From positions 1 to 64,000 of the IMG/VR virus record IMGVR_UViG_3300025707_000003: DNA of 64,000 nt. One strand, 5' to 3'. Of this stretch, positions 26,706-57,904 are shown piece by piece; position 1 is the first letter of the stretch, and every line of letters begins with the position of its first letter. The stretch is from a virus. Its lineage: Duplodnaviria > Caudoviricetes. The translations under genes and the position numbers were made by a program. The notes beneath the pieces were generated by a model. That model saw only the letters and a program-made list of their open reading frames with translations, did not search any database and was not told where the DNA came from.

Positions 26706-27809
26706 ATGTCAACTCATTGTCCAGCTTGTAAGAAAGTAGTAAAGGCAAAGGGTCTACCTTTGCACATTAAGGCTTGCCCCGATTGGGATACCAAGATTGG
26801 AGTTCCCTCGTCCGAGTTCAACTTCGATGAGTATTTCCAAAGGGGTTTGTATGAACCTCAATTGATTGAGAGTGTGGACTACCTGTCTTGTAAGATTTGT
26901 GGGTATCGTAAGAAGCGTATTGCCGACCATGTGAGGAAGGTGCATGGGTATGATGCGAAAGACTATCGTGCTAAGTATAACGCACTCACTTCGATACCTA
27001 AGACAAATGAGAAGCGTAAGGCTACAGTCAAAGAACGCTATGGTGTTGAGAATGTGTTCCAAGATGAGTCTGTAAAAGAGAAGATGAAAGAGACTAATCT
27101 TAAGCGTTATGGTGTAGAACAAATCGCCCATAGTGATGAGGTTAAAGAGAAGCGTAAAGCGACCAACCTAAAGCGTTATGGTGTAGAGAATGGGTTTGCT
27201 TCGGAGATCATCAAGGAACGCATTAAAAAGACGAACCTTGAGCGTTATGGTGTAGAACACCCTAATCAATGTGCCGAGCATAGAGAACGCACTAAAGCAA
27301 CCAATCTTGAGCGTTATGGTACAGAACACTATTTACAAACTGACGAGTTCCAGGAGAAGCGTATTAATACTTGTCTTGAAAGGTATGGACTTCCTTTTGC
27401 TCCAAGTAGTGTGGCGAATAGATCGTCCGACAAACCTAACAAGCTAGAAAGCTACTTTGACTCGATTACACCAGAGAGGTTGGTCTACACAGGAAACTTT
27501 TCTTATTGGTTGAGAGAGAGCAATAGGGCAAGAAATCCCGACTTCATCTATTTGTCGGAGAGTCAGTACGAGAGTTATGTTGCTGGTATTGTTATCTTGA
27601 ATGACTTACGAGTGTATAAGGTGGTGGAGGTCTTTGGAGACTACTGGCATGGGGAATCAAAGACGGGAAAGAGCAATGAGGAGCATGAGGCAGAGGTAGT
27701 AGATTACTATGCTCGTTGTGGTGTGTCTTGCCTTGTGATTTGGGAGGGAGAGATTCGTTCAGACGAGGAGTCTGTGATTGATAGATTTGTGAGTTTCCTT
27801 ACTTCGTAG
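26706..27809 (+). mobile_element. free-standing homing endonuclease-like gene (Zn fingers, ERYGVE repeats, C-terminal PD-(D/E)XK/Vsr-like domain)
   Basis: CPAC/CKIC zinc motifs, five-six K.TNL(K/E)RYGVE repeats, RNPDF...VVEVFGDYWHG. Confidence 0.78.
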
Positions 27810-33924: not shown

Positions 33925-34392
33925 ATGTTTCTTTTATACGCTATACTATCCTACCTCCTCTGGGCATACATACACGAGTACGCTCACCTGCTAACCGCTA
34001 AAAAACTCGTAGGAGTCAAGTCTTACTCCATGAAGATCTATCCTCATACCCATCCTCGACTTGGACTTGTGTTCGCCTCTGTCAGTTATGAGTTTGAAAA
34101 AACCATGACCAAAGCTGAAAAAACTAAGATCTCTTTCGCTCCACGAATCCCAGACGCAATCGCTCTTTTCCTGTTCCCCTTCACTTATAACTTAGATCTC
34201 TTTTGGATCATATTAGTTGGAGGGGGTTTGGTCGATACCATAAGAGGTTCGTTTATCTTTAGCCCTACAAGCGACATCAAGAGATATTGTGATGGTTGGG
34301 GTTTACATTACCCCTACATCAGAACAGTCCAGTTATCGCTTGTAGGATTAAGTCTCTCTCTCTTTATTCTCCTTAGAGGATTACAAAGTTGA
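33925..34392 (+). CDS. membrane zinc metalloprotease-like protein (HExxH)
   Basis: YIHEYAH after an N-terminal transmembrane segment; further hydrophobic segments. Confidence 0.6.
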   Translation: MFLLYAILSYLLWAYIHEYAHLLTAKKLVGVKSYSMKIYPHTHPRLGLVFASVSYEFEKTMTKAEKTKISFAPRIPDAIALFLFPFTYNLDLFWIILVGGGLVDTIRGSFIFSPTSDIKRYCDGWGLHYPYIRTVQLSLVGLSLSLFILLRGLQS

Positions 34393-37300
34393 TAACAAGA
34401 GTTGCATCTGCGGAAAGTTCTCCACCTGTACGATTTACAGCACAAAACTTAAAGCTAGTTGCATTAACGATAGTGTGTGCATAAACCTCAACATTCTTGT
34501 CTTGGCAAGTAGCGAGGATTACGCTTGTGGATAATGCAGAGGTATTATTCACAAGAAAATCGATTGAGTGTGCGTCATCTGCAATTGCAGTGTCTATTGT
34601 TGCTGTCACTTGGAAAGACTTAGTGTTGGTAGCAAGTAATGGGTTGTTACTTGCTCCTTCATCTCCTGTAAGCCCTGTAGTTTTAGTGATTGTAAGACTA
34701 CCCGAATCAATGGTGACTTCTTGATCGTCCTCAATAGTCATAGCAAGAGTTCGAGCGTTTTCTACTGACGCTCCACCATCGGCTGATCCACCTGTCTTAA
34801 ACTCAATCGCACCACCTGTGGCATTACCTGTGGAAGCACCACCACTGATCGTAAGAGTAGTACCTGCGGTATTATCTGCACCAAGAGCAGAACCACCACG
34901 AAGCGTTCCGAGATCCACAGTAGAAAGATCTCCATCAGGAACAGCATAAGTATCCGCTGGCTCTGCTACAGATGCTCTACCATGAAAAACCTTAAAGACA
35001 CCACCCTTACCACCTGCGGTGTCTGCGGTTTCATAAACCATACCCATTAAGTAGTCGGCAGAGTTTGTATCTCCATACGCACCCACAAAACCAACATCTC
35101 TATCATCAGCCGTACTCTGATAACCAAGATAAACAGTTGGGTCTTTAAAGAGCAAGGAGGTCGAGACCGCACTGCTATTTTGAATCACACCTGAGACAGT
35201 TAAGTTCCCAACTATAGCTGTTGTAGCTTCGGTTATGGTAAGAGTAGCGTTATCTGTATTAACGATGGTCGCACCACTACCGAAGTCTAAAGTATTACCT
35301 GTTACTGTAAGATCTCCTGCTGTGATTACAGTCGAACCTGTGTGTCCACCAAGAGTCATTGAGTGGGTATTTCCTACAGAAGCACCGAGAATAGTTCCGT
35401 TTGAGAAGTCAATGTCTCCAGCGAAGGTTGCTTTCTTTAAATGAGTTAGAGTGAGGACAGGAGCAAGAACCGCACCATTCGCACCCGCTGTCTGAAGAAC
35501 AAGATCACCACCATCGCCTGTACCAACACCTCTACCAGAAGATAAGGTAAGAGTAGCTCCATCTGTGTTCCCTGCGGTTTGAGTTGGAGCTTTAATGGTC
35601 GTTGCAGTCGAAGTACCCACCCCTAATACGATGTCATTCCCACCAACAGTAAGATCACCCGCAACAGTAAGCATTTCATCAGTGTCCATAGTAAGAGTAG
35701 TAGTACCCTCACTATTTTGAATGATGTTATTGTTGATTCTGAGATCACCCGAAAGAATCGTAGTGGTTGCAGTTAGAGTGGTTGAAAACCCTGCTCCTGC
35801 AAAGGTAATGACAGTATCTGCATTCGCATTTTTAATATCATTTCCACCAACTTGAAGATCAGCAGAGGTCTTAACAATGTCTTCTGTTAAGAGTAGTGTA
35901 CCTGCTGTAGTTGAGTCGATGATTGAACCTTCAGTTAGGTTGATCTTACCACCAAGTACCGTAACATCACCTGCAAAGGAGGCATTTGATGAAGTTGCAG
36001 TGTCATGTGAGGTTAAAGTGAGAACACCTTGATAACTAGCATCGCCTGTCTTCTGACCACTGATGGTAAGAGTACGAGTACCCTCATCTGATCCTGTGAT
36101 CGTCCAACTATCACCATTCGCAGTACCCAAAGAGGACTGAATGTTGATCACTGCATTTGTAGCGTCTGCCGCTTTGACTGTAAGATCACCACCATTAATA
36201 TTAGCATCACCTGCAATAGTGAGGACACCTGCTTCATCAATAGAAGCGATTTCTGCGTCTAATCCATTCTGGAAAGTGAACTTATTATCGCCATCGGCAT
36301 TCTCGTCCACCCTAAAGAGAATGTCCCCATCTGAGTGGAACGCTAATGTCGGACTTGCAATTTTACCATTGGTAAGAGTGAGATTACCAATGGTAGTGCC
36401 TGTAAAGAAAGAGGAAGCTACTGTGGTGTCAGTGATACCACCTACTGATACTACTGCACCCCCAGTGCTAACAGTAAAGTTTTGTGTTCCAATCGCAGTA
36501 CCCACAGAGAAGTTGGTGTTTGAATGAAATTTACCACCATCTACAGTGAATGAATCTGCCGAATCATCCCACTTCAAGTAAGCGTCAGTGCCATTATCTC
36601 CACCCTTTACAAACAAGAGACTGACATCTGTGTTCGCTCCACCTTTCGCCACATCAGTGCGATCAGAATTGAAGATGATAGCGTTTCCGTCAGTGGGTGC
36701 TGACTTGACCTTAAGCGTATCGTCTAAGGTAGAAATACCTGTGACACCCAAAGTGGTCGTGATAACAGTCGCACCCGTATTTGATACGGTGAAGACAGAA
36801 GCATTAACATCAATACCACCATTAAGGTCTGCAAGACCACTGACTCCAAGAGTACCTGTAATGTCGAGGTCATAAGCAGGAGCGGCAGTCTTGATACCAA
36901 CTCGATCATTACTCGCTTGAGCAAAGATCAAGTTAGCATTGCCATCACCCTCAACCCTAAAGTCGATGTCCACACCACCTTGATTGAACACAACCTCTTC
37001 TGTGGTATTTGTAGTGACGAAGGTGAGGTAAGATTGAGTACCGTTAGCCTTAACATCTCCTTTGACTTCAAGAGATGTCGCTTCATTATCAGTGAGGTTA
37101 ATATCGAGGTCAGAACCTGCGATACTTGAAACACCACTGATCGCACCTGCTAGCGTGATACCACCACCAGAAGCGTCCAAAGAATCAACTGTAGTCGCAC
37201 CGAAGTCACAAACACCTGTTGTTGTTAAAGTGTCATTACCAAAGGTAATCGCATCAGTACCAGAGGCGATTGATCCATTATTGATAGTGAAGTTAGCAAT

Positions 37301-39121
37301 CGTGTGTCCCACGCTATCGGTGGTGATCACACCTGTATTACTTACTGAGAAGTTTGAAGCTCCATCAACAGCACCTTGTGTGATTGCACCTACAACATTT
37401 AATCCATCGGTAACTGAGAAATAAGCCGAGCTTGTGTCCCAAACTAATGAGGAGTATGTAGCACCACGATCCACTCTAATAAGAGTCTGATTCTCATCAT
37501 CGGCTTCGTCATGTCTGAAAGTGATTCCTGTGGAGCCTACAGCATCAGTGATATTAATGTTTCTTGTAACAATAAGATCTTGTCCAACAGTCAAGTCTGT
37601 TGCAGTAGAAACATTATTACTAAACGCCCATGTTGAAGAAGCGTTTGTCCAAGTAAGAGTCGCGTATGTTGGGCCATTGGTAAGGGCTACACCGATTACA
37701 GCATTTGCGGGGGTGTTATCTGTAACAACATCACTATTAAGAAGAAGGCTATGGGTTGCCCCTTTCTTAATATTAAGGTTTTTATTAGATGCAACAGTCA
37801 CATTATCATTAAGGGCAGAAGTACCCGCAATCGTAAGTGTCCCTGCCCCTGTTGTCGAAACATTCCCACTTGTAGTTAGGTCTTCTGCTCCGAAGTCTAG
37901 GTCATTACCCGCTGAATTGATTGCTCCATCAGCTAAAACAAGATTACCAATGGTAGTGCCTGTTTTGAAGGAAGAAGCTACTGTGGTGTCAGTGATACCA
38001 CCAACAGAAACAACAGCACCCCCAGTGCTAACAGTAAACTTATTCCCGCCATTATCAATCTCAATACCACCATCAGCATTTAAGAGTCCTGTAACTCCAA
38101 CAGTAGTACCAAAAGTACCTGCACCTGTGGCTGTAAGAGTTAATAACTGCAATTCTCCAAGGGTGAGGTTTCCACCAAAATCTGTTGCAGTGTGGGCATC
38201 AGTGGTCGTACCAAGTTTGAAGATGTCATCACCTTCATCCCAGAAAATAACAGCGTCATTCCCTGTTGTACCACGCTCTAAGAATAATCCGATGTCATTG
38301 GTGTTTGCAACACCAGCAACACCCTTATTAAGTCTAATGACAGTATCTTCTACATCTAAAGTTGCGGTGTTTACTGTGGTAGTGTCTCCATTAACAGTGA
38401 GATCACCTGCAATCGTCATGTCGTTTGCAATCGCAACAGTAGAAGTACCACCACCTAAAGTAAGAGTCTTCGCTCCAATATTTGCCGCAATACTAGCGTG
38501 TTCAACTGTAAAGTCAATCCCTGTCATACCAGCAAGGGTAGTGGAGCCTGCACCTAAAGAAATGCTTGTTGAGCCTACTGTCAGAGATGAGTTCTCCAAC
38601 TTAGCGTTGGTCACATTATCATCTAAGATTTTTGCAGTGATGACTTTATCTGCACCGATTGAGGAAACCCCCGCATTAGTGATTGTCACATCACCTGAGA
38701 GGGTTACATTTTTCCATTGGTCATCTGCATCCCCACCATCATTATCATAGACGAGAACTTGAGCGTCAGCGACACCTGCAATCGTCACATCATCAATGTC
38801 ATTCAGATTTGCAGACCCACCCAAGTCAACATATGCTTTGGTAGCGGCATCATTATTTGCAGTAGGGGTAGCGAGGTTTGTAATTCTTACAGTGGCATCC
38901 CCTGCGGAGTCTGCAACAGAGATCGTACCATCCACAGCCAAGGCATTTGTGCCGAGATTGGACATATCCGCTTTTAGCGTTTCAGTACCACCTTGAGTTG
39001 CCCCATCATGTACAAGAATGGTTTTCTTTGTGGTGTCGATGGTAATTTCACCAACTGCACCTGTGAAAGCCTCATTTTCAGCAGTTGTACCTCTTCTTAA
39101 TTGAACTCTTCTTACAGACAT
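34373..39121 (-). CDS. long tail fibre with Mtd-N-like N-terminal domain (1582 aa)
   Basis: QLRRGTTAE...FTGA.GEITIDT.KKTI.VHDG...GG N-terminus; beta-rich repeats; class B promoter. Confidence 0.8.
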   Translation of the reverse strand: MSVRRVQLRRGTTAENEAFTGAVGEITIDTTKKTILVHDGATQGGTETLKADMSNLGTNALAVDGTISVADSAGDATVRITNLATPTANNDAATKAYVDLGGSANLNDIDDVTIAGVADAQVLVYDNDGGDADDQWKNVTLSGDVTITNAGVSSIGADKVITAKILDDNVTNAKLENSSLTVGSTSISLGAGSTTLAGMTGIDFTVEHASIAANIGAKTLTLGGGTSTVAIANDMTIAGDLTVNGDTTTVNTATLDVEDTVIRLNKGVAGVANTNDIGLFLERGTTGNDAVIFWDEGDDIFKLGTTTDAHTATDFGGNLTLGELQLLTLTATGAGTFGTTVGVTGLLNADGGIEIDNGGNKFTVSTGGAVVSVGGITDTTVASSFKTGTTIGNLVLADGAINSAGNDLDFGAEDLTTSGNVSTTGAGTLTIAGTSALNDNVTVASNKNLNIKKGATHSLLLNSDVVTDNTPANAVIGVALTNGPTYATLTWTNASSTWAFSNNVSTATDLTVGQDLIVTRNINITDAVGSTGITFRHDEADDENQTLIRVDRGATYSSLVWDTSSAYFSVTDGLNVVGAITQGAVDGASNFSVSNTGVITTDSVGHTIANFTINNGSIASGTDAITFGNDTLTTTGVCDFGATTVDSLDASGGGITLAGAISGVSSIAGSDLDINLTDNEATSLEVKGDVKANGTQSYLTFVTTNTTEEVVFNQGGVDIDFRVEGDGNANLIFAQASNDRVGIKTAAPAYDLDITGTLGVSGLADLNGGIDVNASVFTVSNTGATVITTTLGVTGISTLDDTLKVKSAPTDGNAIIFNSDRTDVAKGGANTDVSLLFVKGGDNGTDAYLKWDDSADSFTVDGGKFHSNTNFSVGTAIGTQNFTVSTGGAVVSVGGITDTTVASSFFTGTTIGNLTLTNGKIASPTLAFHSDGDILFRVDENADGDNKFTFQNGLDAEIASIDEAGVLTIAGDANINGGDLTVKAADATNAVINIQSSLGTANGDSWTITGSDEGTRTLTISGQKTGDASYQGVLTLTSHDTATSSNASFAGDVTVLGGKINLTEGSIIDSTTAGTLLLTEDIVKTSADLQVGGNDIKNANADTVITFAGAGFSTTLTATTTILSGDLRINNNIIQNSEGTTTLTMDTDEMLTVAGDLTVGGNDIVLGVGTSTATTIKAPTQTAGNTDGATLTLSSGRGVGTGDGGDLVLQTAGANGAVLAPVLTLTHLKKATFAGDIDFSNGTILGASVGNTHSMTLGGHTGSTVITAGDLTVTGNTLDFGSGATIVNTDNATLTITEATTAIVGNLTVSGVIQNSSAVSTSLLFKDPTVYLGYQSTADDRDVGFVGAYGDTNSADYLMGMVYETADTAGGKGGVFKVFHGRASVAEPADTYAVPDGDLSTVDLGTLRGGSALGADNTAGTTLTISGGASTGNATGGAIEFKTGGSADGGASVENARTLAMTIEDDQEVTIDSGSLTITKTTGLTGDEGASNNPLLATNTKSFQVTATIDTAIADDAHSIDFLVNNTSALSTSVILATCQDKNVEVYAHTIVNATSFKFCAVNRTGGELSADATLVINFVIL
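36381..38038. repeat. ~98-bp imperfect direct repeat inside the tail fibre gene (36381-36478 and 37941-38038)
   Basis: Both copies encode FTVSTGGAVVSVGGITDTTVASSF.TGTTIGNL; offset 1560 bp. Confidence 0.8.
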
Positions 39122-46181: not shown

Positions 46182-48260
46182 TTAAAATCTATACCTCAAC
46201 CTAGAGTACCTAAGACCACTAGACGAGTTTCCTACACAAATCGCTACTGCGTCCTTATCTCCAATCAGCACTGCCTTATCCTTCGCTCTCGTGACAGCGG
46301 TGTAGAGCAAAGAGCGTTGTAAGAGGTTTGAACTATGTTCGGTGGTCATAGGCATAATGATGGTGTCGTACTCAAGACCTTGGCTCTTATGAACAGTCGT
46401 AGCATAAGCGAGTCTCAATAGCTTCCTTACTTGATCAGAAGGGATGTCTACGATTTGATCTTTTACACCTTTGATGAGTACGCTCACGCTTGTTTTATCA
46501 ATCGACCTAATACGACCTATATCACCATTATAAACATTGAGGTCATACTCATTCTTGGTGATCATAACTCGATCACCTACTCGGATTGAATCTTTACCTA
46601 CCCGAATGAAAGCACCTCCTATATCGGGGTTCAAAGCAGATCTAAGCTCTCTGTTAAGATTAGTAACACCCACTTTGCCATGATGAGTAGGACTAACCAC
46701 ATGGAAATCTATTTGATCCATGTGAAGCTCTTTACACCGTCCCACAATTTCATCGAGAATGTCTTGTGAGGTATAACGATCAATGAACTGATAATCTTTA
46801 TTGTGTTGTGGCACTTCACCTGCATGGATCTTGTGAGCGGCAATTGTCACCCCACTCCCCTCTCCTTGCCTAAAGATTTCTGTAAGGTGTTCTCTCGGTA
46901 CTGCGTTCGACTCAATAAGTTCCGAAAGAACAAACCCTGCACCAACAGGTGGAAGCTGTGCTATATCACCTACCATGATGACTCGACACTTGGGTGAGAT
47001 GCCTTTCATCACACGCCACATGAGGTGTAAGTCAATCATAGAGGATTCGTCTATAATGACAACTGACTCTGGTCGAGGATTCTGAGGATTATGTCTCCAT
47101 AGTTCTCGACTTGGGTCATTGCTATTGCCAATACCTTTAACTCCACTTTCTTCATCTTTCTTAACCCCTTCATAATCAGACTTGTCCTTCTTATCCTCTG
47201 AGGGCAATCCTGCACCGAACGCTCTATGGACTGTGAAAGCGTCCATATTGGTTAATGCACTAGCTCGTTTAGCGGCTATTCCTGTGGGGGCGATGAGTAA
47301 GATACTTTCTTTACGATCACGCAAGATTTTACAGAGCGTATTAAGGATAGTCGTCTTACCTGTTCCTGGTAATCCTGTCACGATTGAAAAAGGCTCTATA
47401 AGACCCTGTTGGATTGCTTTGAGTTGTGTATTGGTCAATGGGTAGCGTGAATATGCTTTAATGTCATCAATACTTATTGATTGAAGCATACTATTCACTC
47501 GGAGAGGAGATTTAATTTCTTCGGCAACAGCTACCTCCATTTTATGATAAGAAGGCAAATAAAGGGCAATAGAGGAGTCTTGTGATATCTTATCTACCAC
47601 AATGCGAGTCGGCTTCGCCTCTTTCATCGACTTGATGACTTGACCTATCTCTTTCGGGTTCGTCAAGCCTGTGAGGATAGCAGTATCTTTGAATACCGTA
47701 TTTGTGTCTAAATAACAATGACCTTGATACACACCTTGAAGCATAGACCAAAAGATAGAGGCTTCAACTCGACCTTCATTTTCTGGGTCAAAGTCCTTTT
47801 TAAGAAGCGTCTTAGCAATTTCATCAGCACCTTGAAAAGAGACACCTTTATAAACCAACGACCAAGGGTTTTTAGCAATAGAACTCGGAGATATTTGAAC
47901 ATCATTCCAAATAGAGTTTATGATGTTCAAAGGCACTCCTGCTTCAGACAGACTTGAGATAACCTCGATGGACTCTTGCATAAGAGGGTCAGACCAATCT
48001 GCCCAACTGTAGAGAGCCGACCCTTTAAGATACTTAGGGTTAATCGGATTACGAACTATATCAAGGTTCTTCTTCCCATTACGCTTGTCGAGGACTTCCT
48101 TACCTTGAAAGGTAAATACTTGACCTTTTGAAACAGGGCCTGCAATCTTACCTTTGACCACGATAGGCTTTGTATCGGCCTCAGAAGCTACGATACACCT
48201 TAGAATATAATAAGGTGGGTTGGCAAAAATCTGCCCCAACACTTTGGCAACATAAAACAC
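46182..48260 (-). CDS. recD2: RecD2-like SF1 helicase
   Basis: TGLPGTGKTT, APTGIAA, IDESSM, GDIAQLPPVG, YATTVHKSQGLEY, LYTAVTRAK. Confidence 0.9.
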   Translation of the reverse strand: MFYVAKVLGQIFANPPYYILRCIVASEADTKPIVVKGKIAGPVSKGQVFTFQGKEVLDKRNGKKNLDIVRNPINPKYLKGSALYSWADWSDPLMQESIEVISSLSEAGVPLNIINSIWNDVQISPSSIAKNPWSLVYKGVSFQGADEIAKTLLKKDFDPENEGRVEASIFWSMLQGVYQGHCYLDTNTVFKDTAILTGLTNPKEIGQVIKSMKEAKPTRIVVDKISQDSSIALYLPSYHKMEVAVAEEIKSPLRVNSMLQSISIDDIKAYSRYPLTNTQLKAIQQGLIEPFSIVTGLPGTGKTTILNTLCKILRDRKESILLIAPTGIAAKRASALTNMDAFTVHRAFGAGLPSEDKKDKSDYEGVKKDEESGVKGIGNSNDPSRELWRHNPQNPRPESVVIIDESSMIDLHLMWRVMKGISPKCRVIMVGDIAQLPPVGAGFVLSELIESNAVPREHLTEIFRQGEGSGVTIAAHKIHAGEVPQHNKDYQFIDRYTSQDILDEIVGRCKELHMDQIDFHVVSPTHHGKVGVTNLNRELRSALNPDIGGAFIRVGKDSIRVGDRVMITKNEYDLNVYNGDIGRIRSIDKTSVSVLIKGVKDQIVDIPSDQVRKLLRLAYATTVHKSQGLEYDTIIMPMTTEHSSNLLQRSLLYTAVTRAKDKAVLIGDKDAVAICVGNSSSGLRYSRLRYRF

Positions 48261-48374
48261 GAGAAGTCCTTTCTCTACTTAGGAGATCATTTTCTTGTGT
48301 TATATGATTTAACCCTAATACATCTAGCTGTTCGAGAGGAACTGCTCCATAGTAGTTGAACTCATCTTAGCCCC

Positions 48375-48971
48375 TTATTTTAAAAGATCGAACTCTTCTT
48401 TAGTTATATCTACTGGGTAGGGGTTGGGTTTGATGAGATGAGGATGGAACTCCACAAACATCGGCCCATGACAAACCTTTTGGATTGCGTCAAGATTCTT
48501 CTGTGTGTCTTCCCAAACAGAAACACTTGTGATGTTTGGGTACTTCTTTAAGAGATCAAATACTAACTTGGCTTTATACCTCGCTGTCGATCCAGTTCCT
48601 GGCTTTAAGTGAACCTCATCAAAATCAAGACCCTTCCCCTTTAACAACTCTGCAACACGATAACGCATCGCACCATTGTCATTAGGGCGACCTGTACACA
48701 TGATCGCAAGAGTGTCCATATCAGAGATTGATCTCTTAGCCTCAGAAACAACCCCACCATACCAATAATCCCCACTTGGCTTTTGAGGGACAAAAGGTTC
48801 ACTCAAACTAATTGCCTCATTAAACCAATAGCCCATCTTTTTCTTCGACCACCACTCTGGTGGTTCGGGGCTTCTGAAGAGGGTATTGTCAAAGTCAAAT
48901 ATGTGAAGCTCAAGATTTTCTGAGCTTGTTTTCATATACTTTGTAGCAACTCTCGCAACAAGATTTCTCAT
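48375..48971 (-). CDS. HAD-superfamily phosphatase (Swiss-Army-knife RNA-repair HAD-like) with N-terminal RVA leader
   Basis: HIFDFDNTLFRSP (DxD motif I), CTGR (motif II), LK, WED; class B promoter. Confidence 0.78.
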   Translation of the reverse strand: MRNLVARVATKYMKTSSENLELHIFDFDNTLFRSPEPPEWWSKKKMGYWFNEAISLSEPFVPQKPSGDYWYGGVVSEAKRSISDMDTLAIMCTGRPNDNGAMRYRVAELLKGKGLDFDEVHLKPGTGSTARYKAKLVFDLLKKYPNITSVSVWEDTQKNLDAIQKVCHGPMFVEFHPHLIKPNPYPVDITKEEFDLLK

Positions 48972-49025
48972 GTTCGTTCTCCTTTAAGGTATTATAAACA
49001 ATCAACAGTAATAAAGGATCTACAA

Positions 49026-49907
49026 ATGATTGTTATACTTTCTCCGACATCACAGTTAGCTACCGACACTCTTAGGGTATCAAACCCTCCTGCATTATCA
49101 GTTGAAGCAGAATATGGAGGGTTCGTCCTTGAGGGTACAAAATACACTGCCGCTCACCATCAACCTCTAGGTTCTCCTTATGTTGGAAGACACCTCACAC
49201 CCTTTGGTAGACCTGCCCCTTGTAATGATGCAGGCATACCGAAACTCAATGAAGATGAGGTCGCACTGATCTCTCATATAGACATCGACACTCTAGGTGG
49301 GCTTATGCGAGCTACAGATCAGTTCGTGGATAATGGAGTCTTTTGGTTCTATGCTGAACATATTGACACCAACGGAATCCACAAGGCAAAACAAGACCAC
49401 CCTTGTTGGGTTCTATATAATGGATTAATTGCATGGATTAACGAGAACCACCCAGAGATAGACCCGAAAAGAAACAACGATGTAACCGATTTCTGCTATC
49501 AGGCGTTCGACTTCATTAAAGAAATGCTCACTGATGGTCAGATCGCTACTCAAATGGGTAATGCTCATATCTCTATTCAAGAAAAGCTCGATGAGTCTAC
49601 CCTCGTAGAGATGCGACCCTGTGGCTTGATCGTTAGACGAACAAGAGGAGAAAAGGTAAATCATCTTTATCGTGAAGAAAATGCAGTCATAACCTTCGAT
49701 GAAAAGTATAAGAAGATTAGGATTTCTACTGCTGACCCCATTAAAAATCTATCTTGCAGACGACTCGTTCAAGAATGGTGGGGTGATCGAGCTGGTGGAC
49801 ATGATCAGATCGCAGGTTCTGCAAGAGGTCAAATCATGTCCGAAGATCAGTTTAAAGAAGCAATAGAAAGGTTTGAAACTGAACTGACTAGATCATTACA
49901 AAGGTAA
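49026..49907 (+). CDS. hypothetical protein with weak DHH/DHHA1-like features
   Basis: AHHQ, SHIDID, C-terminal AGGH...AGS. Confidence 0.45.
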   Translation: MIVILSPTSQLATDTLRVSNPPALSVEAEYGGFVLEGTKYTAAHHQPLGSPYVGRHLTPFGRPAPCNDAGIPKLNEDEVALISHIDIDTLGGLMRATDQFVDNGVFWFYAEHIDTNGIHKAKQDHPCWVLYNGLIAWINENHPEIDPKRNNDVTDFCYQAFDFIKEMLTDGQIATQMGNAHISIQEKLDESTLVEMRPCGLIVRRTRGEKVNHLYREENAVITFDEKYKKIRISTADPIKNLSCRRLVQEWWGDRAGGHDQIAGSARGQIMSEDQFKEAIERFETELTRSLQR

Positions 49908-49909
49908 AG

Positions 49910-50503
49910 CTAAAAACCCTTCTCTTTGAGTGTCTTCTTATACTCAGACCATGATCTCCTAAAGGTTAGCATGAAACCCTCAAGATCATCATAAAGACTA
50001 GATGGAGTGAGTACACCAGAGAGCTTAGGTAAACCCCAACCACCGTTAAAGAGATCCTGTAAAAAGTCATCTGTAGATGTGTGGCCAGTATGTTCTCGTT
50101 CATCGCTGAAGTTGATCGAATACTCGACCATCTCTTCACCATAGCTAAACTCGATGTCGATCTGTAAACGATCTTCATCACAGATCATCACACCACAAAA
50201 GTCACATTCTTCCTCTGTAGTTTCTTCGACTCGAAACCCAAGCTCATGTAGAACTTTGAGGAACGCACCAATTGCGTAAAAAGTGTTCTGACCTTCTAGG
50301 ATCTCATCAGTGACCCCACGAACACCATTACGCTTCTCAGTCATGGATTGCTCGATGAGATTCTGTCGAGCGTTTTCCTCGATAGCACACTCAAACATCA
50401 AACCATAAGTTTTAAAGGTATCGAGGACACCTTTTAGTGCTGTGTCAGCTTCAAGAAAGTCTGCGAAGATGAACTTCTCGTCCTCTTGATAATCTTCTTG
50501 CAT
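49910..50503 (-). CDS. acidic hypothetical protein
   Basis: Class A promoter at 50526; GGAGG RBS. Confidence 0.7.
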   Translation of the reverse strand: MQEDYQEDEKFIFADFLEADTALKGVLDTFKTYGLMFECAIEENARQNLIEQSMTEKRNGVRGVTDEILEGQNTFYAIGAFLKVLHELGFRVEETTEEECDFCGVMICDEDRLQIDIEFSYGEEMVEYSINFSDEREHTGHTSTDDFLQDLFNGGWGLPKLSGVLTPSSLYDDLEGFMLTFRRSWSEYKKTLKEKGF

Positions 50504-50602
50504 ATTGTCCTCCGTTCTAAGGGGTATAAATAAAGGGTTACAAATCGACCCTCATATCTACTAACGAACCCTAGAACACAAATCGGACAACTTTTCTTCG
50601 AT

Positions 50603-51166
50603 TTATTTTTTATCTTGACCGAAATCCCAAGGTAAATCGTACATATCTTGACCCGAACGAGCATCTTTCCAACCGATCCTAGCTTGGAGTGAACCACGAG
50701 CGGGGATGATTTCTCCCTTTGCAAGAAGCTCGTTGCTGTATTTAGCTCCCACGCCATTGGTTGCGATGGTGATGTGAGGATCATCATTCTTAACAAGTCG
50801 AGATAGAGGGCCTTTAGGCTCTACAAGTACAGCCATCCCCTTATCATCATGTGCGTAGCCCACGATGTCTAATACAACGGGTTTGCCGATTAGATCAGCA
50901 TAAGGTTCAAGAATGTTGGACTCGGCCCGACCTTCTCTCTTAAGAGCTTTCTTATCCTTTTTATCAAAGAACTCGATGGTCATGTGGTGAGCGGCAACTT
51001 TCCACCCCATTGCTTCGGGATCAAGACCTGCTTGATCCTGAAACCAATTAAGTAAGTCTCTCGTGTCGATAACTGCTTCTGCAAACATAACACTTGCAGG
51101 TTTCTCTTCGGCAAGCTTCCTCATGTGTGTAGAGGCAACTCTTCGGATCATGCGATTGTAGTTCAT
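50603..51166 (-). CDS. 2H phosphoesterase with N-terminal RVA leader
   Basis: Two HxT motifs (AHHMTI, PHITI) about 70 aa apart; class B promoter. Confidence 0.78.
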   Translation of the reverse strand: MNYNRMIRRVASTHMRKLAEEKPASVMFAEAVIDTRDLLNWFQDQAGLDPEAMGWKVAAHHMTIEFFDKKDKKALKREGRAESNILEPYADLIGKPVVLDIVGYAHDDKGMAVLVEPKGPLSRLVKNDDPHITIATNGVGAKYSNELLAKGEIIPARGSLQARIGWKDARSGQDMYDLPWDFGQDKK

Positions 51167-51314
51167 ATTAAACTCCTTTTAGGTTTGATTAAATGCATAT
51201 AAACTAGAGCTTATAAACAATCTACAAATAGAGTGTAACCCCTTATCTATTGAGTTGTGTGGGAAAGGTATATAGACCGAACCCAAACCCCTTACTCCAA
51301 ACAAGGAGATCCCA

Positions 51315-53441
51315 ATGAGAGTTTTCAAGAACAAGTTCGCTAAAAAATGCCAAGTCTGCTCAGTACGAGTAGATGAGGGTCAAGGCTTCACCTATCAGCC
51401 TAATGGTGGTGCTTATACCACCATCTGCAACTCATCTCAGTGTGTGGACGCAAGTCCTGCACAGGTGAAGGCTCTCCTCTCAGCACCCTCTGTGCGAGAG
51501 ATCAACGCTCAAGGAGAGATCAAGATGCCCTATGAGGCTGAAGCTCTCCCCATCTTGCGTGGTATGCCAGGTGCGAGGTGGGATGGTGATCTGAAGTGTT
51601 GGACTGTAAGCCTCGCTCCGAAGGATCGTGAGCGTGTGATGGAAGGGGTTAAGCGTCTTAACCTCAGTTTCCCCATCGGGTTTGATGGTGTTCAGCACGA
51701 CAGCACTGTCTTAGACGCTATCACTCGTGCAAAGAGTGGTGGGGCGTACACCTATCAGCTTGATGGTGTGAAGTTCCTTAGTTCTCACGAAAACTGCCTC
51801 CTCGCAGATGACATGGGCTTGGGTAAGACACTCCAAGCTCTCATGGCTATCGAAGAGGGTGGTCGAGCAATCGTAATCTGCCCTGCAACCTTGAAGCTCA
51901 ATTGGGCGAACGAGGTTCGCAAATGGAGATCTGATCTCTCCCCAGTGGTCTGTAAAGGTCGCAAGGGTTTCAAACTCCCTCAAGCTAACGAGGTGGTCAT
52001 CATCAACTATGACATCTTGCCTACCGAGATGACCCCTACATCTCAGTGGGGCGATGACTCTGAGAATGTGCCACAAGCGTGGCGTGATGTACTTGCAAAG
52101 ACCGTCCTCATCGCTGATGAGGCACACCTCTGTAAGAGCCACAAAGCTATGCGTAGCAAGCGTACAAAGGTTTTGAGCAACCTCTGTCAGCGATCTTGGG
52201 CAATGACAGGGACTCCACTCTTGAGCAAGGGTTTTGACCTTTGGGGAGTGGTCAGCACCTTCGGAATGGGTCGCACAGTGTTTGGTGGATTCAAAGGGTT
52301 CATCAGAGACATGAACGGTTATAAGAACTATCATGGGGGGTATGAGTTCGGCACACCTAACCCATGTGTACCTGAGAAGCTCCGTAGGGTCATGCTTAGA
52401 CGACTCAAGACAGAGGTACTCACAAGCCTCCCTCCTAAGACTTACCAAGATGTACTTGTCGAGGTAGGCTCAAAGCGTCTGCTCAAGATGAGTGAGAAGA
52501 TGCTCAAGGCAATGAAAGAGCATGGCTCAAGCTCACTACCCGACTTTAGCGAGTTTAGTCGAATCCGAGCCGAGCTTGCAAAGTCTCGTATCTCTGCTCT
52601 TGAAGAGATGGTAGAGAGCTTTGAGGAGGCTAACGAGCCTGTGGTCGTGTTCTCAGCACATCGTGCCCCTATCGAAGCTATGGCGAAGCGTCATGGTTGG
52701 GCTGTCATCATGGGTGATACTCATCAGTCTGACCGAGAGGACGCAGTACAAGCCTTCCAAGCAGGTATGCTCAAGGGTATCGCTTGCACCATCAAGGCAG
52801 GTGGTGTCGGGATCACGCTCACCAAAGCAAGCAAGATGATCTTCTGTGATCAAGAGTGGAATCCAGCTCTTAATCTTCAAGCCGAAGACCGTATCTGTCG
52901 TATCGGTCAAACGGCACAAAACCTTCAGTACATCCGACTCGTCAGCGACTGTGCTATGGATCTCCATGTCCTTAAGCTCATCGACAAGAAGAAGGCTCTC
53001 ATCAAGGCTTCGATTGAGAAGGAATGTGGAGCTTTGACCTCTACCACTAGGACTAAGGGAGTGGCGATCAAACAAGAGACTCGCTCAGAGCGTGATGCAA
53101 GGGTAACTAAAGCTATCGCACAACAGGCTCAAAATGAGGTTCTAAGCCAAATCCCTGTGTGGACTAGTGTAATCCCCTCAAAGATCCTCAATCGTTCAGT
53201 AGACACTAATATACAAGCTCAAATCATCACTGCAAGTGAGGCTCTCGATGGAGCGTGTGATGGAGCGACTGATAAAGACGGAATGGGATTTAACAAACCC
53301 GATTCTTATGTGATGAAGAACATCAACTCAAGCGGTATGCTTCACGACCTCGACCAACAAGACCTCCTCAAGTACACATGGTCTAAGTTGATCAAATATC
53401 GAGGGCAAATCGGTCAAGTAGCACCAAGCCTGTTCATCTGA
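51315..53441 (+). CDS. SNF2-family helicase with N-terminal HARP-like domain
   Basis: LLADDMGLGKT, DEAH, MTGTP, MLRRLK, QAEDRICRIGQ; class A promoter. Confidence 0.9.
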   Translation: MRVFKNKFAKKCQVCSVRVDEGQGFTYQPNGGAYTTICNSSQCVDASPAQVKALLSAPSVREINAQGEIKMPYEAEALPILRGMPGARWDGDLKCWTVSLAPKDRERVMEGVKRLNLSFPIGFDGVQHDSTVLDAITRAKSGGAYTYQLDGVKFLSSHENCLLADDMGLGKTLQALMAIEEGGRAIVICPATLKLNWANEVRKWRSDLSPVVCKGRKGFKLPQANEVVIINYDILPTEMTPTSQWGDDSENVPQAWRDVLAKTVLIADEAHLCKSHKAMRSKRTKVLSNLCQRSWAMTGTPLLSKGFDLWGVVSTFGMGRTVFGGFKGFIRDMNGYKNYHGGYEFGTPNPCVPEKLRRVMLRRLKTEVLTSLPPKTYQDVLVEVGSKRLLKMSEKMLKAMKEHGSSSLPDFSEFSRIRAELAKSRISALEEMVESFEEANEPVVVFSAHRAPIEAMAKRHGWAVIMGDTHQSDREDAVQAFQAGMLKGIACTIKAGGVGITLTKASKMIFCDQEWNPALNLQAEDRICRIGQTAQNLQYIRLVSDCAMDLHVLKLIDKKKALIKASIEKECGALTSTTRTKGVAIKQETRSERDARVTKAIAQQAQNEVLSQIPVWTSVIPSKILNRSVDTNIQAQIITASEALDGACDGATDKDGMGFNKPDSYVMKNINSSGMLHDLDQQDLLKYTWSKLIKYRGQIGQVAPSLFI

Positions 53442-53524: not shown

Positions 53525-55486
53525 ATGCCACACTCACCATTAACAGACAAAAACCCCACTCATTACTTGAAAAGGTTCGGGCGTGATGTCCATCCTTCTC
53601 AACACTTAAGAGAATTGGTACAAAACGCTATCGAGTCAGAAGCGACTAAGATTGACATCCTAAATGAACCCACATTAGCGAAAAAAGACATCCTCAAACT
53701 TTGTGTTCGAGATAACGGTGCGGGTATGACCGCAAGCGAGATGTACAAATACCTTGGTTCGATGAACTCAAGTTCTAAGTCATCGAACTCAGACCCACAC
53801 GAAAACTATGGGATTGGAGCTAAAGTTACAACTGCCCATAACAATCCTTATGGTGTGGTTTTTATGTCATGGACAAAGGGTAATCCTGTGGGGAACTTGG
53901 TCTGGCTTTCACTTGAAAATGATCGCTTTGGAATGAAGTCATTCCCTATCACAGATGAGTTTGAAGATGAAGATGGAGAGGTGTTCACTGAGACCTCAGA
54001 CATTGTTTCTTACATTGACGGTAAAGCCACGAATGTAATCCCACTCCACCATGAAGACTATGGAGACTTTACTGTGGATGGAGTAAACTGGAATAAACAT
54101 AAACCCAGATGTGGGCATGGTTCTGTCGTGGTTCTTATGGGTAAAAGTCTTGAGGACAACTCTTGGACTGATACTGAAGGTAAACTTTATTCTGCTAGGG
54201 GTGTTTCTCATTATCTCAATCAGAGATACGCATATATCCCCAAAGACACAAAGATTAAAGTGCTAAGAGGCAAGGGTAAATTACAATTACGGGTAGAGGG
54301 TCTACTAGCGACTTTTAGAGCAAAAGGATTCCTAAAAAGCCAATCGTTCGTTGAATGTCCAGATGGATTCAAAGTGGAAGTATTGATCACCGAAAAGCAT
54401 TCTACTTGGAGAGAAAAACAAGGCAAAGAGTCTCGCAAACAGTTTGGAGGAAGCTCTCCATTACTCAGTTTCTTTGAAGTCAAAGACATTGAAAAGGGTT
54501 TTGTAGCTGTTCAATACAAGAGTGAAAAGACTACCGAACTTTATAATATACAGAGGGGGATTAATACTGCTAGGGATTGGGGCTTGAGTTGTGAATCAGT
54601 GATCCCAAATGTGAAGTTAATCGTACACCCTCCACAGTTAGATGATACTAATCAAACTAAGGGAGTCTACCCGAATGAAGGTAGAGATCAGCTCTTGTGG
54701 CGAGACTATGGGAGTTTAAAGGGGTCGGGTCGTAAACTTGATCTTAGTAAAGTAAGAGAACACTTTATTAATAATATGCCCCAAGAGTTGAGATCCTTGA
54801 TCGACAATGCCTATGAAGGTTATCAAGGCAAGCAACTTGATATCACAAAGATCTTAAATCGCTGGAAAAGCATCTTTAAATCGAGAAATAATTTGGATGC
54901 TGTTATAGAGTCTCATGCTAAGGGAGATATTAACTTCGACCCCACAGGTATGGGGGGTACTAAAGAGTACGACAAAAAAGAGGTTGGAGACTCTAAAGGG
55001 GGGGTGCGTAAAGGACTTGAGAGCGGAGGACATGGGCATACGGGGGATGAAGAGAATAAAAAAGGCAAGGTTAAAGGTAGGAAAAGAAAGACAAAGAAGC
55101 AAAAAGACATCATTATCAGGTGGGAAACTAAAAGAGACATTGGATTTGATAGTACCAAGACAGAAGAAAAGTTCCTCTTCTTTGCAGTGGAAGACACTGA
55201 CAGGATCGTGGTAACTGGAAACCCAAACCATGACCTTATTAAAGAGGTACTAGCTTTCTTTGTGGTCGAGAATAAAAAAGTACCAAAAGTCTTCATCCAT
55301 GAGACAATAAAAGAGGTATATGAGGGTGAACTTCAATCTTACATCTTACACCTTCTTAACTTCAATAAGAAGAAAGGCTCTTCTGTCACCCCTTATCTCA
55401 CCCACGAGACATTACAATCTAAGTTTATGGGGTGTCATATGCTATGGGGGAAAATTTCAAGGAAGATCAACAATAGGTTTAGATGA
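53525..55486 (+). CDS. GHKL (MORC/Hsp90-like) ATPase
   Basis: LRELVQNA (N box), DNGAGM (G1), YGIGAK (G2). Confidence 0.75.
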   Translation: MPHSPLTDKNPTHYLKRFGRDVHPSQHLRELVQNAIESEATKIDILNEPTLAKKDILKLCVRDNGAGMTASEMYKYLGSMNSSSKSSNSDPHENYGIGAKVTTAHNNPYGVVFMSWTKGNPVGNLVWLSLENDRFGMKSFPITDEFEDEDGEVFTETSDIVSYIDGKATNVIPLHHEDYGDFTVDGVNWNKHKPRCGHGSVVVLMGKSLEDNSWTDTEGKLYSARGVSHYLNQRYAYIPKDTKIKVLRGKGKLQLRVEGLLATFRAKGFLKSQSFVECPDGFKVEVLITEKHSTWREKQGKESRKQFGGSSPLLSFFEVKDIEKGFVAVQYKSEKTTELYNIQRGINTARDWGLSCESVIPNVKLIVHPPQLDDTNQTKGVYPNEGRDQLLWRDYGSLKGSGRKLDLSKVREHFINNMPQELRSLIDNAYEGYQGKQLDITKILNRWKSIFKSRNNLDAVIESHAKGDINFDPTGMGGTKEYDKKEVGDSKGGVRKGLESGGHGHTGDEENKKGKVKGRKRKTKKQKDIIIRWETKRDIGFDSTKTEEKFLFFAVEDTDRIVVTGNPNHDLIKEVLAFFVVENKKVPKVFIHETIKEVYEGELQSYILHLLNFNKKKGSSVTPYLTHETLQSKFMGCHMLWGKISRKINNRFR

Positions 55487-57904
55487 TTAACTGCACTTCC
55501 CATAACCACAATCGGTACATGAAACACACCCGTCTTGATAGATCAACGAGTCGTTTCCACAGTCATCACATCTTTTATCACTGGGTACTTCTCCGTTCTC
55601 TATATACCCTTTCAAGATACGAGCAATGCACTTACTGAAGCTGAACATATCGCTGTTTCGATCTTTCAAGAGTTGCTCGACCATAAACTTAGCTTTTGCT
55701 CCATGTCTCAAACCTAATGAGATCATACGAGCAAAGGCTAAGTTATTTGGGTTATTGAAGACTGAGACTACATCCTTTATGACTAGCCCTTCATCTCCAA
55801 TATGCAGATCATACTTACCGTTTTGAGTTTTGAACTGACGCTTAGAGATTTTCCCTGTGGTGTACTTCTTAGGGATCTCTATCAAACTCGCTTTCCCCCC
55901 AAATATCTCATATGGTTTATCTTCAAGCAACCCGACTAAAATGATCCATTTCTCACTTTGAATCTGAGAGTAATGAATATCACACTCAAGTAGAGCAGGT
56001 CGTTTTGGAGCTTGGTTTTGTGGGAAAGTTTCTTTTTCTTTCTTTGTCACCAAGACACCAGATCTTGAACCATCAACATAAACAGTGACCCCTTTTAACT
56101 TTAGTCTCCAAGATTTCAAGTATATTTCACTGACCGTTTCCTCTGTCGTGTCTGAGGGGAGATTTATTGTGGATGAGATAGCATGGTCAATATGCTGTTG
56201 AATGGTTGCCTGGATCTCTACTCTTTTTTCCCATTTGATATTCTGACTTTCAGTGAAGAAATCTGGTAATGGTTGATCTGGATTTAATGTTTTCCACTCT
56301 AAGATGTTGTGGTGGAACACTTCGTACTCATCCCAAACATCACCGACATCATCTACAAAACTTTTTTCAGTTTTGTTCTTCTCTTCAATCTTCCTTCTTC
56401 GCACATAAGAATTACGAAAGACGGGTTCTAATCCAGAACTTGTCTGAGACATTAGAGAAACACTACCTGTTGGAGCGTTAGTCAAGATGCTGATGTTTCT
56501 TCGCCCATGCAGTTTGATCCCATCTTGGATTTCTTGAGGAAGAGACTTTATGAAGAGGTTGTCTTTTTCTAAGTCATAATTGAAAGCTGGGAACGCACCT
56601 CGTTCTTGAGCTAGGTTTATGCTCTCTTTATACGCTTCACATTTAAGAGTCTTGTAGATCTCATCTGTTATTTTTAAAGCCTCATCACTATCATAGGGAA
56701 GATTAAGCCTAGCGAGTGCGTCAGCTAATCCATGAGTTCCTAATCCTGTGCGTCTACCATTTTCACAAGCAGTCAGTAGCTTTCCCCATAGGCTCTTTTC
56801 ATCTTCGGTGTCTGATATTTGAATCAGGTTAGAGAGCTTTTCTAATTCTAACTCTACAAGATCATCGGAGAGTCTCATCGCACTTTGTACCGTTTTTGAG
56901 AAGTCCTCAAAGTTAAAAGCGGGATACTCTTCAAACGCATTTAGCACAAAGTGTTTCAGGTTGATGGAAATCAACCTACAAGAGTCATAAGCGGACAAGG
57001 GGATTTCGGCACAAGGATTTGTGCATATCGTTTTGAACTCTGGATATGCATTTGCAGGTAGGTAGTTTAAAATGTTATCCCACATCAAGAGTCCAGGTTC
57101 TGCTGTAGTTTTAGCCGAACGAACAATTGTTTCCCATAGATCCTTCGCAGAAATCGTCTTTGTATGTGTTGGGGATTCACTCTCCACAGGATACTGGAGT
57201 GTGAAATCTGAATCAGACTCCACGGCCTTCATGAACTCATCATTGATCCTGATGCTAATGTTAGCACCTGTCACTTTTGTGAGGTCATTCTTCATTGTGG
57301 TGAAGTTTTCGATGTCGGGGTGTCTGATGTCCATAGAGAGCATCAAAGCTCCTCTTCGACCATTCTGACCAACCATGCGACAGACATGACTGTAGAAGTC
57401 GGCAAAGCTCCAAGCACCAGTAGTTGTACCCGCTGAATTTGAAACTTTAGAACCAGAGGGTCTTAATGAACTCAAATCGAGTCCAACACCACACCTTCTT
57501 TTAAAGAGGTTAGCGAGATCTCGCCCTGCATTCATGATGCTACTCATGTCATCACTTGGAGACTCCACAACCACACAATTTGAGAGAGAGGTATTTATTT
57601 GGTTGTTACCGATCCCCATCATAGGAGATCCTTGAGGTACGATCTTCTTAAAATCTTTTAACAAGTCATAGATGTCTTCCTCACTCATTTGTCCATCATT
57701 GGAAAACTTTGATTCGATCCTCGCAAATTCTGCACTTAATCTCTGGTGCATTTGATCTGGAGTTACCTCTAAGAACTCCCCATGCTTATTCTTCAACGCA
57801 TACTTTGAAACCCAGACCTGACTTGCCAAAGAATCCCCGTTAAAGTACCTTAATGATTCTTCGGACACCTTACTTAAAGAATACTCACCATTCATTATCC
57901 ACAT
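55487..57904 (-). CDS. nrdJ: class II (B12-dependent) ribonucleotide reductase
   Basis: SNC, RRCGVG, TNPCAEI, APTG, G.TVYVDGSR, C-terminal C..CG...GC..C..CG; no intein seen. Confidence 0.92.
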   Translation of the reverse strand: MWIMNGEYSLSKVSEESLRYFNGDSLASQVWVSKYALKNKHGEFLEVTPDQMHQRLSAEFARIESKFSNDGQMSEEDIYDLLKDFKKIVPQGSPMMGIGNNQINTSLSNCVVVESPSDDMSSIMNAGRDLANLFKRRCGVGLDLSSLRPSGSKVSNSAGTTTGAWSFADFYSHVCRMVGQNGRRGALMLSMDIRHPDIENFTTMKNDLTKVTGANISIRINDEFMKAVESDSDFTLQYPVESESPTHTKTISAKDLWETIVRSAKTTAEPGLLMWDNILNYLPANAYPEFKTICTNPCAEIPLSAYDSCRLISINLKHFVLNAFEEYPAFNFEDFSKTVQSAMRLSDDLVELELEKLSNLIQISDTEDEKSLWGKLLTACENGRRTGLGTHGLADALARLNLPYDSDEALKITDEIYKTLKCEAYKESINLAQERGAFPAFNYDLEKDNLFIKSLPQEIQDGIKLHGRRNISILTNAPTGSVSLMSQTSSGLEPVFRNSYVRRRKIEEKNKTEKSFVDDVGDVWDEYEVFHHNILEWKTLNPDQPLPDFFTESQNIKWEKRVEIQATIQQHIDHAISSTINLPSDTTEETVSEIYLKSWRLKLKGVTVYVDGSRSGVLVTKKEKETFPQNQAPKRPALLECDIHYSQIQSEKWIILVGLLEDKPYEIFGGKASLIEIPKKYTTGKISKRQFKTQNGKYDLHIGDEGLVIKDVVSVFNNPNNLAFARMISLGLRHGAKAKFMVEQLLKDRNSDMFSFSKCIARILKGYIENGEVPSDKRCDDCGNDSLIYQDGCVSCTDCGYGKCS

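Follow-up and report, generated by a model that had tools for sequence, protein, structure and literature searches.

In bacteriophage T4, proteins are targeted to the capsid by an N-terminal peptide of about 10 residues with an L/I-x-E site, cut by the prohead protease, at its end. In Escherichia coli, the HD domain of the CCA-adding enzyme acts as a 2′,3′-cyclic phosphodiesterase and phosphatase for tRNA 3′-end repair. For polyvalent proteins with ART, InPase or 2H domains, the last both fused and solo, packaging in the phage head and injection have been predicted (Iyer, Burroughs, Anand, de Souza and Aravind 2017, PMC5512222); the word "topoisomerase" occurs once in that text, a HAD domain is not named, and the paper describes no peptide common to junctions or termini. 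The particles of giant phages such as SPN3US are known to contain numerous proteins that are ejected into the cell (PMC10052503, PMC7411985). Here we compare with these systems two genes, encoding a HAD phosphatase and a 2H phosphoesterase, in a stretch of 64,000 nucleotides (IMG/VR record IMGVR_UViG_3300025707_000003, positions 1 to 64,000; hereafter the window) from a huge marine phage that encodes a tail sheath and tail fibres. Both proteins begin with a short basic peptide, referred to below as the tag. The original prediction was that the two enzymes, expressed from structural-type promoters, might be delivered in the virion for RNA repair or for the destruction of host signalling nucleotides. 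The two proteins and their tags are as follows.

48375..48971, minus strand: HAD_SAK_1-type phosphatase of 198 aa, with D26-F-D28-N-T30, T93, K133 and E154-D155

48918..48971, minus strand: N-terminal tag of the HAD protein, residues 1-18, with a predicted helix at 4-15 and the core R-V-A-T-K-Y-M at 48933-48953

50603..51166, minus strand: 2H phosphoesterase of 187 aa, of the CNPase / tRNA-ligase-CPD type, with HxT at residues 61-63 and 131-133

51098..51166, minus strand: N-terminal tag of the 2H protein, residues 1-23, with a predicted helix at 3-21 (predicted local distance difference test, pLDDT, about 60) and the core R-V-A-S-T-H-M at 51122-51142

The 198-aa protein is a member of the Pfam family HAD_SAK_1 (PF10307; E-value 3.5e-19, 69.8 bits against a cut-off of 25.6) and contains all four HAD motifs (DxDxT, T/S, K and (E/D)D), with residues that are invariant or nearly so across 23 homologs, confirming the open-reading frame (ORF) and its earlier identification as a HAD phosphatase. 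Its predicted structure (pLDDT 94) has the HAD Rossmann-like fold. The top fold matches were fungal HAD_SAK_1 proteins, with template-modelling (TM) scores of 0.78 and 0.68, and the model also matched MDP-1, the phosphatase domain of T4 Pnkp (TM by target 0.73, root-mean-square deviation (rmsd) 3.4) and the Pnkp1 chain of a bacterial RNA repair complex. From this likeness in fold, and from fusions of the domain with 2H, kinase, nucleotidyltransferase (NTase) and topoisomerase IB domains, we infer that the protein is a polynucleotide 3′-phosphatase that would remove a 3′ or 2′ phosphate in the manner of T4 Pnkp.

The ORF predicted to encode a 2H enzyme was likewise found as described, and both of its catalytic motifs, H61-M-T63 and H131-I-T133, are invariant across 16 homologs. 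The predicted structure (pLDDT 90) matched the catalytic domain of CNPase with a Z-score of 12.2 (rmsd 3.0 over 139 residues) and the Trl1 kinase-CPD structure with a Z-score of 10.7, compared to 6-7 for LigT-type enzymes, and the top three fold matches in Swiss-Prot were CPD domains from tRNA ligases of plants and yeast. Against the Pfam family tRNA_lig_CPD (PF08302) the protein scored 21.2 bits, under the cut-off of 23, while several of its homologs have a precomputed assignment to this family. The protein would thus work like a CPD enzyme, without formal membership of the Pfam family. The original prediction had named both Acb1 and Trl1-CPD as structures for comparison; the fold is nearest to CNPase and Trl1-CPD, the likeness to Acb1 being less close: Acb1 models appeared at rank 13 and lower in a viral structure library (E-value 6e-4, TM by query 0.42), beneath tRNA-ligase-like proteins of giant viruses, and Acb1 was not among the listed solved-structure matches. 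A joint structure prediction of the HAD and 2H proteins scored 0.00, which gives no verdict either way on their association.

The short basic N-terminal extensions claimed for both proteins are well supported. Both start codons are preceded by AAGGAG or AAAGGAG, and both tags are amphipathic and basic, with isoelectric points above 10. In a relative whose HAD protein is 75% identical, changes in the HAD leader are mostly synonymous, and in the 2H leader all changes to the R-V-A codons are synonymous. The tag is kept in HAD homologs of at least 46% identity and in 2H homologs of at least 71%, and structural matches of the 2H model begin at residue 21-25. It had been a concern that the extensions might be part of the fold in leaderless homologs; the distant homologs begin at the first strand, and the claim was not refuted on this point. 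In HAD homologs without the leader, the motif is found at the C-end or at the junction of HAD with 2H. Because the tag is limited to the closer homologs and its changes are mostly synonymous, the extensions are best read as translated add-ons under selection, and we regard the assignment of the enzyme families together with the add-on nature of the tag as very probably correct.

The peptides had been likened to the R[IV]A core of a leader family, the main 23-residue leader, which is present on six window genes. The likeness holds for the R-[IV]-A core, for the helical and basic character and for the promoter family. The tags nevertheless represent a distinct, second motif: the main leader is always N-terminal, of the form M-R-R-S-A-S-E ... 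R-[IV]-A-R-L-E with its core at residue 15, whereas in the second motif the core is followed by x-[RK]-[YWFH]-[LM] and its distance from the start varies, and copies are also found at C-ends and domain junctions. In the two enzymes R-V-A falls at residue 7 (HAD) and residue 9 (2H) and is followed by T-K-Y-M and S-T-H-M, respectively, which places neither of them in the main-leader family. The consensus of the second motif is S-A-S-R-V-A-S-R-Y-L-K-K-A (in short form, SAS-RVASRYLKK), and the residue after R-V-A is most often S.

To describe the wider occurrence of the motif we used the window, 80 viral loci and the relative G001, a complete viral contig of 375,691 bp that is collinear over part of its length with the window at ~81% nucleotide identity and serves as its proxy genome. 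Among 1,897 non-redundant proteins from these sources, the pattern [RK][VI]A.[RKSTNAL][YWFH][LMIV] was counted by position, with expected numbers taken from shuffles.

Within 15 residues of the start: 19 observed, 0.37 expected

Within 30 residues of the end: 16 observed, 0.53 expected

Internal: 24 observed, 4.2 expected

The carriers represent 21 sequence clusters. Because the pattern was drawn up once the first examples had been seen, the enrichment is partly circular and somewhat inflated, a point that counts against our reading and is partly remedied by leaving out all HAD and 2H proteins, after which 9 N-terminal and 11 C-terminal cases remain. Despite the inflation, the terminal bias of the motif is large. 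In several proteins (G001 53586-57101 and small ORFs of L032, L039, L073 and L023) the motif runs into a conserved K-R-A-[VI]-Y-W-A, the start of a small C-terminal domain of ~70 residues, so that some copies seem to be part of a larger module. The motif is not read as a Tat signal, since it lacks a twin arginine and is not followed by a hydrophobic stretch. Whether the tag is a head-loading or processing signal is, in our estimate, an evenly balanced question.

The promoter-like elements ahead of the two genes are as follows.

48992..49027, minus strand: promoter-like region of the HAD gene, with ATTTGTAGAT at 49018-49027, one-mismatch copies of TAGNTNNTTTATA at 49010-49022 and 48993-49005, and TTGTTTATAA at 48992-49001

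51211..51229, minus strand: promoter-like motif ahead of the 2H gene, in which ATTTGTAGAT runs into TTGTTTATAA and TAGATTGTTTATA is an exact match, kept in relatives

With at most one mismatch, TAGNTNNTTTATA matches the window 22 times against 7.1 expected, with a maximum of 14 in 100 shuffles, and TTGTTTATAA occurs in exactly four copies (12211, minus; 25642, plus; 48992, minus; 51211, minus), each upstream of an ORF. The two enzymes thus share the structural-type motif as had been predicted, with an exact copy of TAGNTNNTTTATA ahead of the 2H gene (51212-51224) and two one-mismatch copies in tandem ahead of the HAD gene, where G001 has a single exact copy in the same place. The same sequence also precedes the main leader cassettes, the tail-fibre gene (34373-39121) and the gene immediately before that of the sheath. 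A sub-form, TTTGTAGA, is common to the HAD gene, the 2H gene and some other tagged genes, and promoters of second-motif genes tend toward it, in contrast to TTTAATAG. In G001 the promoter motif was present upstream of 19 of the 22 main-leader genes, 6 of the 17 second-motif genes and 39 of the 400 other genes, and an exact copy lies ahead of the topoisomerase IB gene, which in that genome stands alone. From the tail genes and from this association we infer that the promoter is late-type. Elsewhere in the window, a DUF7487 / Ros-MucR-like gene (26706-27809, plus strand) has a sigma-70-type promoter, TTGACA-N17-TATAGT, unlike the late-type motif, and is likely an early gene.

The company that the HAD domain keeps in relatives bears on both the function and the destination of the two proteins. 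Public data contain HAD-2H fusions and one HAD-kinase fusion, and in giant proteins the domain orders 2H-CCA-type NTase-HAD, NTase-HAD-2H and HAD-2H-topoisomerase IB were found. At a distance of at most 10 kb from the HAD gene, a 2H gene is present in about 20 of the 80 viral loci, topoisomerase IB in 20 and a CCA-type NTase in 6. The motif is carried by giant proteins with topoisomerase IB, InPase, ART-PolyVal and GNAT domains, by a C39-like peptidase, by a tandem CCA-type enzyme and by many small proteins without a family; PHROGs and Pfam gave no family for most of the other tagged proteins. The tandem CCA-type protein (G001 257901-260747, L113; 948 aa) has two NTase modules and bears the motif near its C-end, and its gene adjoins two small genes that start with the motif (261617-262156 and 262153-262650). 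Giants in which topoisomerase IB is fused to HAD_SAK_1, and sometimes to 2H, were seen at L049:9941-13660, L026:9989-13225, L027:9896-13045, L025:7421-10555, L076:9917-13732 and L073:7871-12865. A C39-like peptidase gene (G001 207274-208512; L097:7274-8512) is the first in an operon of three motif-carrying genes, and a C39-like protein of another phage (L008:15225-16574) bears the motif itself; the C39-like peptidase is a candidate processing enzyme for the motif.

In 15 of the 80 related loci, a highly conserved capsid gene follows the HAD gene on the same strand at a distance of 8-9.5 kb. One related phage, whose HAD is 45% identical to that of the window, encodes on a single strand and in this order a 137-aa protein with a C-end motif, the HAD protein with a C-end motif, a 1247-aa topoisomerase IB protein with internal and C-end motifs, a 207-aa protein, a 184-aa protein in which the motif starts a small domain, three further genes and a 293-aa capsid-family protein. 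This last protein (L121:19485-20366) is 91% identical to the 292-aa capsid-family protein of G001 (48887-49765; L089:8887-9765), and just upstream of the G001 capsid gene lie a 197-aa gene with a C-end tag and a tagged gene of 1171 aa, whose product matches the C-terminal half of the topoisomerase IB giant over one region (E-value 1e-7). The capsid protein is conserved although the HADs of the two phages are 89% and 45% identical to that of the window, and for phages of 170-530 kb both its conservation and its small size are unusual. Because tagged genes stand just upstream of the capsid gene, the tag appears to mark head-module proteins, and in the window lineage the HAD and 2H genes seem to have moved to the replication region with tag and late-type promoter retained. 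The late-type promoter, the fusions of polyvalent type and the head-module location in relatives all give indirect support to the idea that the enzymes may be loaded into the virus particle. Profiles for the T4-type capsid (PF07068), the prohead protease (PF03420) and T4 Rnl1 (PF09511) gave no match in G001; the controls were equally silent, which makes this absence uninformative.

These elements can be assembled into a mechanism. The late-type promoter would drive both genes, and the tag would direct the products to the head during assembly, possibly with a second role as a processing site; the enzymes would then travel in the particle and act on arrival. In the cell, the 2H enzyme, being of the CNPase / Trl1-CPD type, would open the 2′,3′-cyclic phosphate left by a metal-independent RNase, and the HAD_SAK_1 enzyme, a capless HAD like the T4 Pnkp phosphatase, would strip the remaining phosphate to give a 2′,3′-diol end, which a CCA-type nucleotidyltransferase could then extend. 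Because such an NTase can extend the healed end, the likely substrate would be the tRNA 3′ end, not an anticodon nick that requires a ligase, and by analogy the 2H and HAD enzymes could supply the same two steps as the E. coli HD domain. DNA ends with a 3′ phosphate are also a possible substrate, given the frequent link with topoisomerase IB. The healing of RNA 3′ ends is the probable task of the pair, and its combination with a head-directed tag falls a little short of an even chance. Actual delivery in the particle followed by early action is a tentative proposal. Equally doubtful is the proposal in its widest form, in which SAS-RVASRYLKK would be a position-independent head-loading and processing code belonging to one widespread lineage of huge marine phages, through which a ligase-free tRNA 3′-end kit (2H, HAD and CCA-type nucleotidyltransferase), topoisomerase IB, ADP-ribosyltransferase and further enzymes would be pre-loaded, delivered along with the DNA and act before phage expression.

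For the window it had been claimed that no RNA ligase is present. It does contain an ATP-dependent ligase ORF (3063-4022, minus strand; 319 aa) and is therefore not devoid of polynucleotide ligases; its match to DNA_ligase_A_M (E-value 1.7e-19) is accompanied by a weak match to RNA_ligase (5.6e-5) below the cut-off, and the protein is most likely the replication DNA ligase. A search of the rest of the genome had been proposed as well, and was run in the relative G001, where neither RtcB (PF01139) nor RNA_ligase (PF09414) gave a profile match at threshold.

Several observations weigh against delivery of the pair by the particle. In this phage and its close relatives the HAD and 2H genes sit amid helicase and ribonucleotide reductase genes, outside the head module, and the capsid gene of G001 has no copy of the promoter motif directly upstream. 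The N-terminal helix of the HAD protein was modelled at pLDDT 76-90 and a fungal homolog aligns from residue 7, so that the helix may be packed against the domain and serve a structural purpose. Enzymes fused within polyvalent proteins do not necessarily share a pathway, and the carriers of the HAD and 2H genes are uncultured phages only. To our knowledge, the RNA repair enzymes of T4, Pnkp included, are not virion proteins. The main rival draws on some of these same facts: the enzymes would be made late and remain in the cytoplasm, unpackaged, keeping the 3′ ends of tRNA and other RNA usable at peak translation, while the peptide would join them to a common partner or compartment or contact RNA. 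This would account for the location of the genes in a replication and nucleotide-metabolism region, for the basic and amphipathic character of the motif, for its recurrence on RNA-related enzymes such as the tandem CCA-type NTase and for the fair confidence of the HAD helix, which suggests docking in cis. It accounts less well for a motif that is also found on ART-PolyVal, InPase, GNAT and C39-like peptidase proteins without an evident RNA link and on genes inside the head module, and placement at either terminus is typical of cargo tags. We consider this explanation unlikely, though it has to be taken seriously.

A quite improbable alternative is that the motif is a protease recognition site only (cut at R-x-A / S), inherited from polyproteins, so that on the solo HAD and 2H proteins it would mark the trimming of a few residues or be a relic, without any addressing role. 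Internal copies at the domain junctions of giant proteins, the prevalence of S after R-V-A, the C39-like peptidase that leads a tagged operon in G001 and the C39-like protein of another phage that bears the motif would fit such a site, which would leave unexplained why enrichment is about 50-fold and 30-fold at the extreme ends compared to about 6-fold internally, why conservation extends to both sides of the putative cut, and why some junctions, such as those between HAD, 2H and Topo IB in L049, are without the motif. The anti-signalling branch of the original prediction, in which the enzymes degrade host immune signalling nucleotides as anti-CBASS Acb1 does, has come out as the less likely one, and we would give it little credence. 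The 2H enzymes include Acb1, whose models are among the viral structural matches, if at rank 13; PMC5512222 suggests that polyvalent 2H domains may destroy signalling nucleotides; and a DHHA1-like ORF lies between the HAD and 2H genes. The 2H fold is clearly nearer to CNPase and Trl1-CPD than to any other 2H group, the fusions with CCA-type NTase, kinase and HAD suggest action on polynucleotide ends, and no NCBIfam family was matched, all of which leaves RNA-end healing the better supported of the two activities that had been proposed. That the N-termini are alike by chance, or that the start codons were miscalled, might be entertained for so short a motif, and is very remote given strong ribosome-binding sites at both starts, a peptide conserved through synonymous changes and a 30- to 50-fold terminal enrichment across 21 clusters; chance as the origin of the tag likeness is excluded for practical purposes.

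The stretch under study holds four ORFs (48375-48971, minus; 49026-49907, plus; 49910-50503, minus; 50603-51166, minus) between a RecD2-type helicase (46182-48260) and a SNF2 helicase (51315-53441), and NCBIfam profiles gave no family match for any of the four. The two that lie between the HAD and 2H genes are as follows.

49026..49907, plus strand: ORF of 293 aa, divergent from the HAD gene; a GGH motif forms part of its weak DHHA1 / MYG1-like signal

49910..50503, minus strand: acidic ORF of 197 aa (isoelectric point 4.3), immediately downstream of the 2H gene on the same strand

The pairing of the 293-aa ORF with the HAD gene is kept in close relatives, and atlas leads for it were the DHHA1 and MYG1 exonuclease families; the protein could be a third end-processing enzyme. 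The 197-aa acidic protein had no family match and has homologs in the closest relatives only, an atlas look-up having given leads only; it is possibly an inhibitor or a nucleic-acid mimic. Elsewhere in the window, a ThyX thymidylate synthase gene (24134-24877, plus strand) and a class II-like ribonucleotide reductase gene with a TSCPD domain (55487-57904, minus strand) represent ordinary nucleotide metabolism.

A nucleotide search of the region against deposited phages gave no match, and protein matches were limited to uncultured huge phages. Among 185,579 prokaryote species genomes, a scan with two peptide patterns, and so a weak negative, found only three HAD relatives, all on contigs of metagenome-assembled genomes. 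DNA near-identical to window positions 48300-51400 was present in marine and seawater metagenomes from at least 12 studies spanning 2012-2020, and the phage is therefore widespread and persistent. Two oligo-dT RNA libraries contained three small, low-depth pieces of the region, which are possibly carried-over DNA and give no evidence of transcription or of its start sites.

If the tag does load the head, it would give a simple, portable rule for the enzymes that a huge phage brings into the cell, one that works from either end of a protein, unlike the T4 targeting sequence. It would also mean a counter-defence not yet described for phages, namely a ligase-free kit for tRNA 3′-end repair that comes in with the genome and counters host RNases producing cyclic-phosphate ends. 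Even if the proteins are unpackaged, the link of HAD_SAK_1 to 2H, CCA-type NTase and topoisomerase IB suggests a testable function for a family uncharacterised in fungi, and several domains are added to those named in PMC5512222.

Among described systems, T4 Pnkp, which acts with Rnl1 in tRNA healing and sealing, resembles the HAD protein in its capless HAD fold and DxDxT nucleophile motif, in being phage-encoded and in the phosphorylated polynucleotide ends for which both are predicted. The window proteins differ from it in having no fused kinase, in leaving the opening of the cyclic phosphate to a separate 2H enzyme, and in carrying an address-like tag and a late-type promoter. The CPD domains of Trl1 and AtRNL and vertebrate CNPase are the best structural matches of the 2H protein and share its paired HxT motifs, while the phage enzyme stands alone at 187 aa, without a ligase or kinase domain. 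The fungal "Swiss Army Knife" proteins of HAD_SAK_1, S. pombe C4.02c and S. cerevisiae YMR265C, belong to the same Pfam family as the HAD protein and are its best fold match; they are 437-461 aa long with further domains and are annotated "Uncharacterized protein", whereas the phage protein consists of the HAD domain and the tag. Relatives fuse HAD, 2H, ART-PolyVal and InPase into giants encoded next to head genes, as in polyvalent proteins, whereas the window proteins are solo with one catalytic domain each, short of the two domains that define that class, and the linkage to virion genes expected of it is seen as head-module context in 15 of the 80 related loci and not in this phage. The T4 capsid targeting sequence of internal proteins and Alt is likewise a short terminal peptide on unrelated, late-made proteins; the motif described here differs from it in sequence and occurs at the N-end, the C-end or internally, and no L/I-x-E was found after it, which sets it apart from targeting of the T4 type. 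Enzymes of these families, polyvalent proteins and peptides that target the capsid are already known. What appears to be new is the terminal and junction motif itself and its use from either end of a protein, the presence of HAD_SAK_1, topoisomerase IB and CCA-type enzymes within head-module giant proteins, and the idea of a ligase-free tRNA-end repair kit that is possibly virion-borne.

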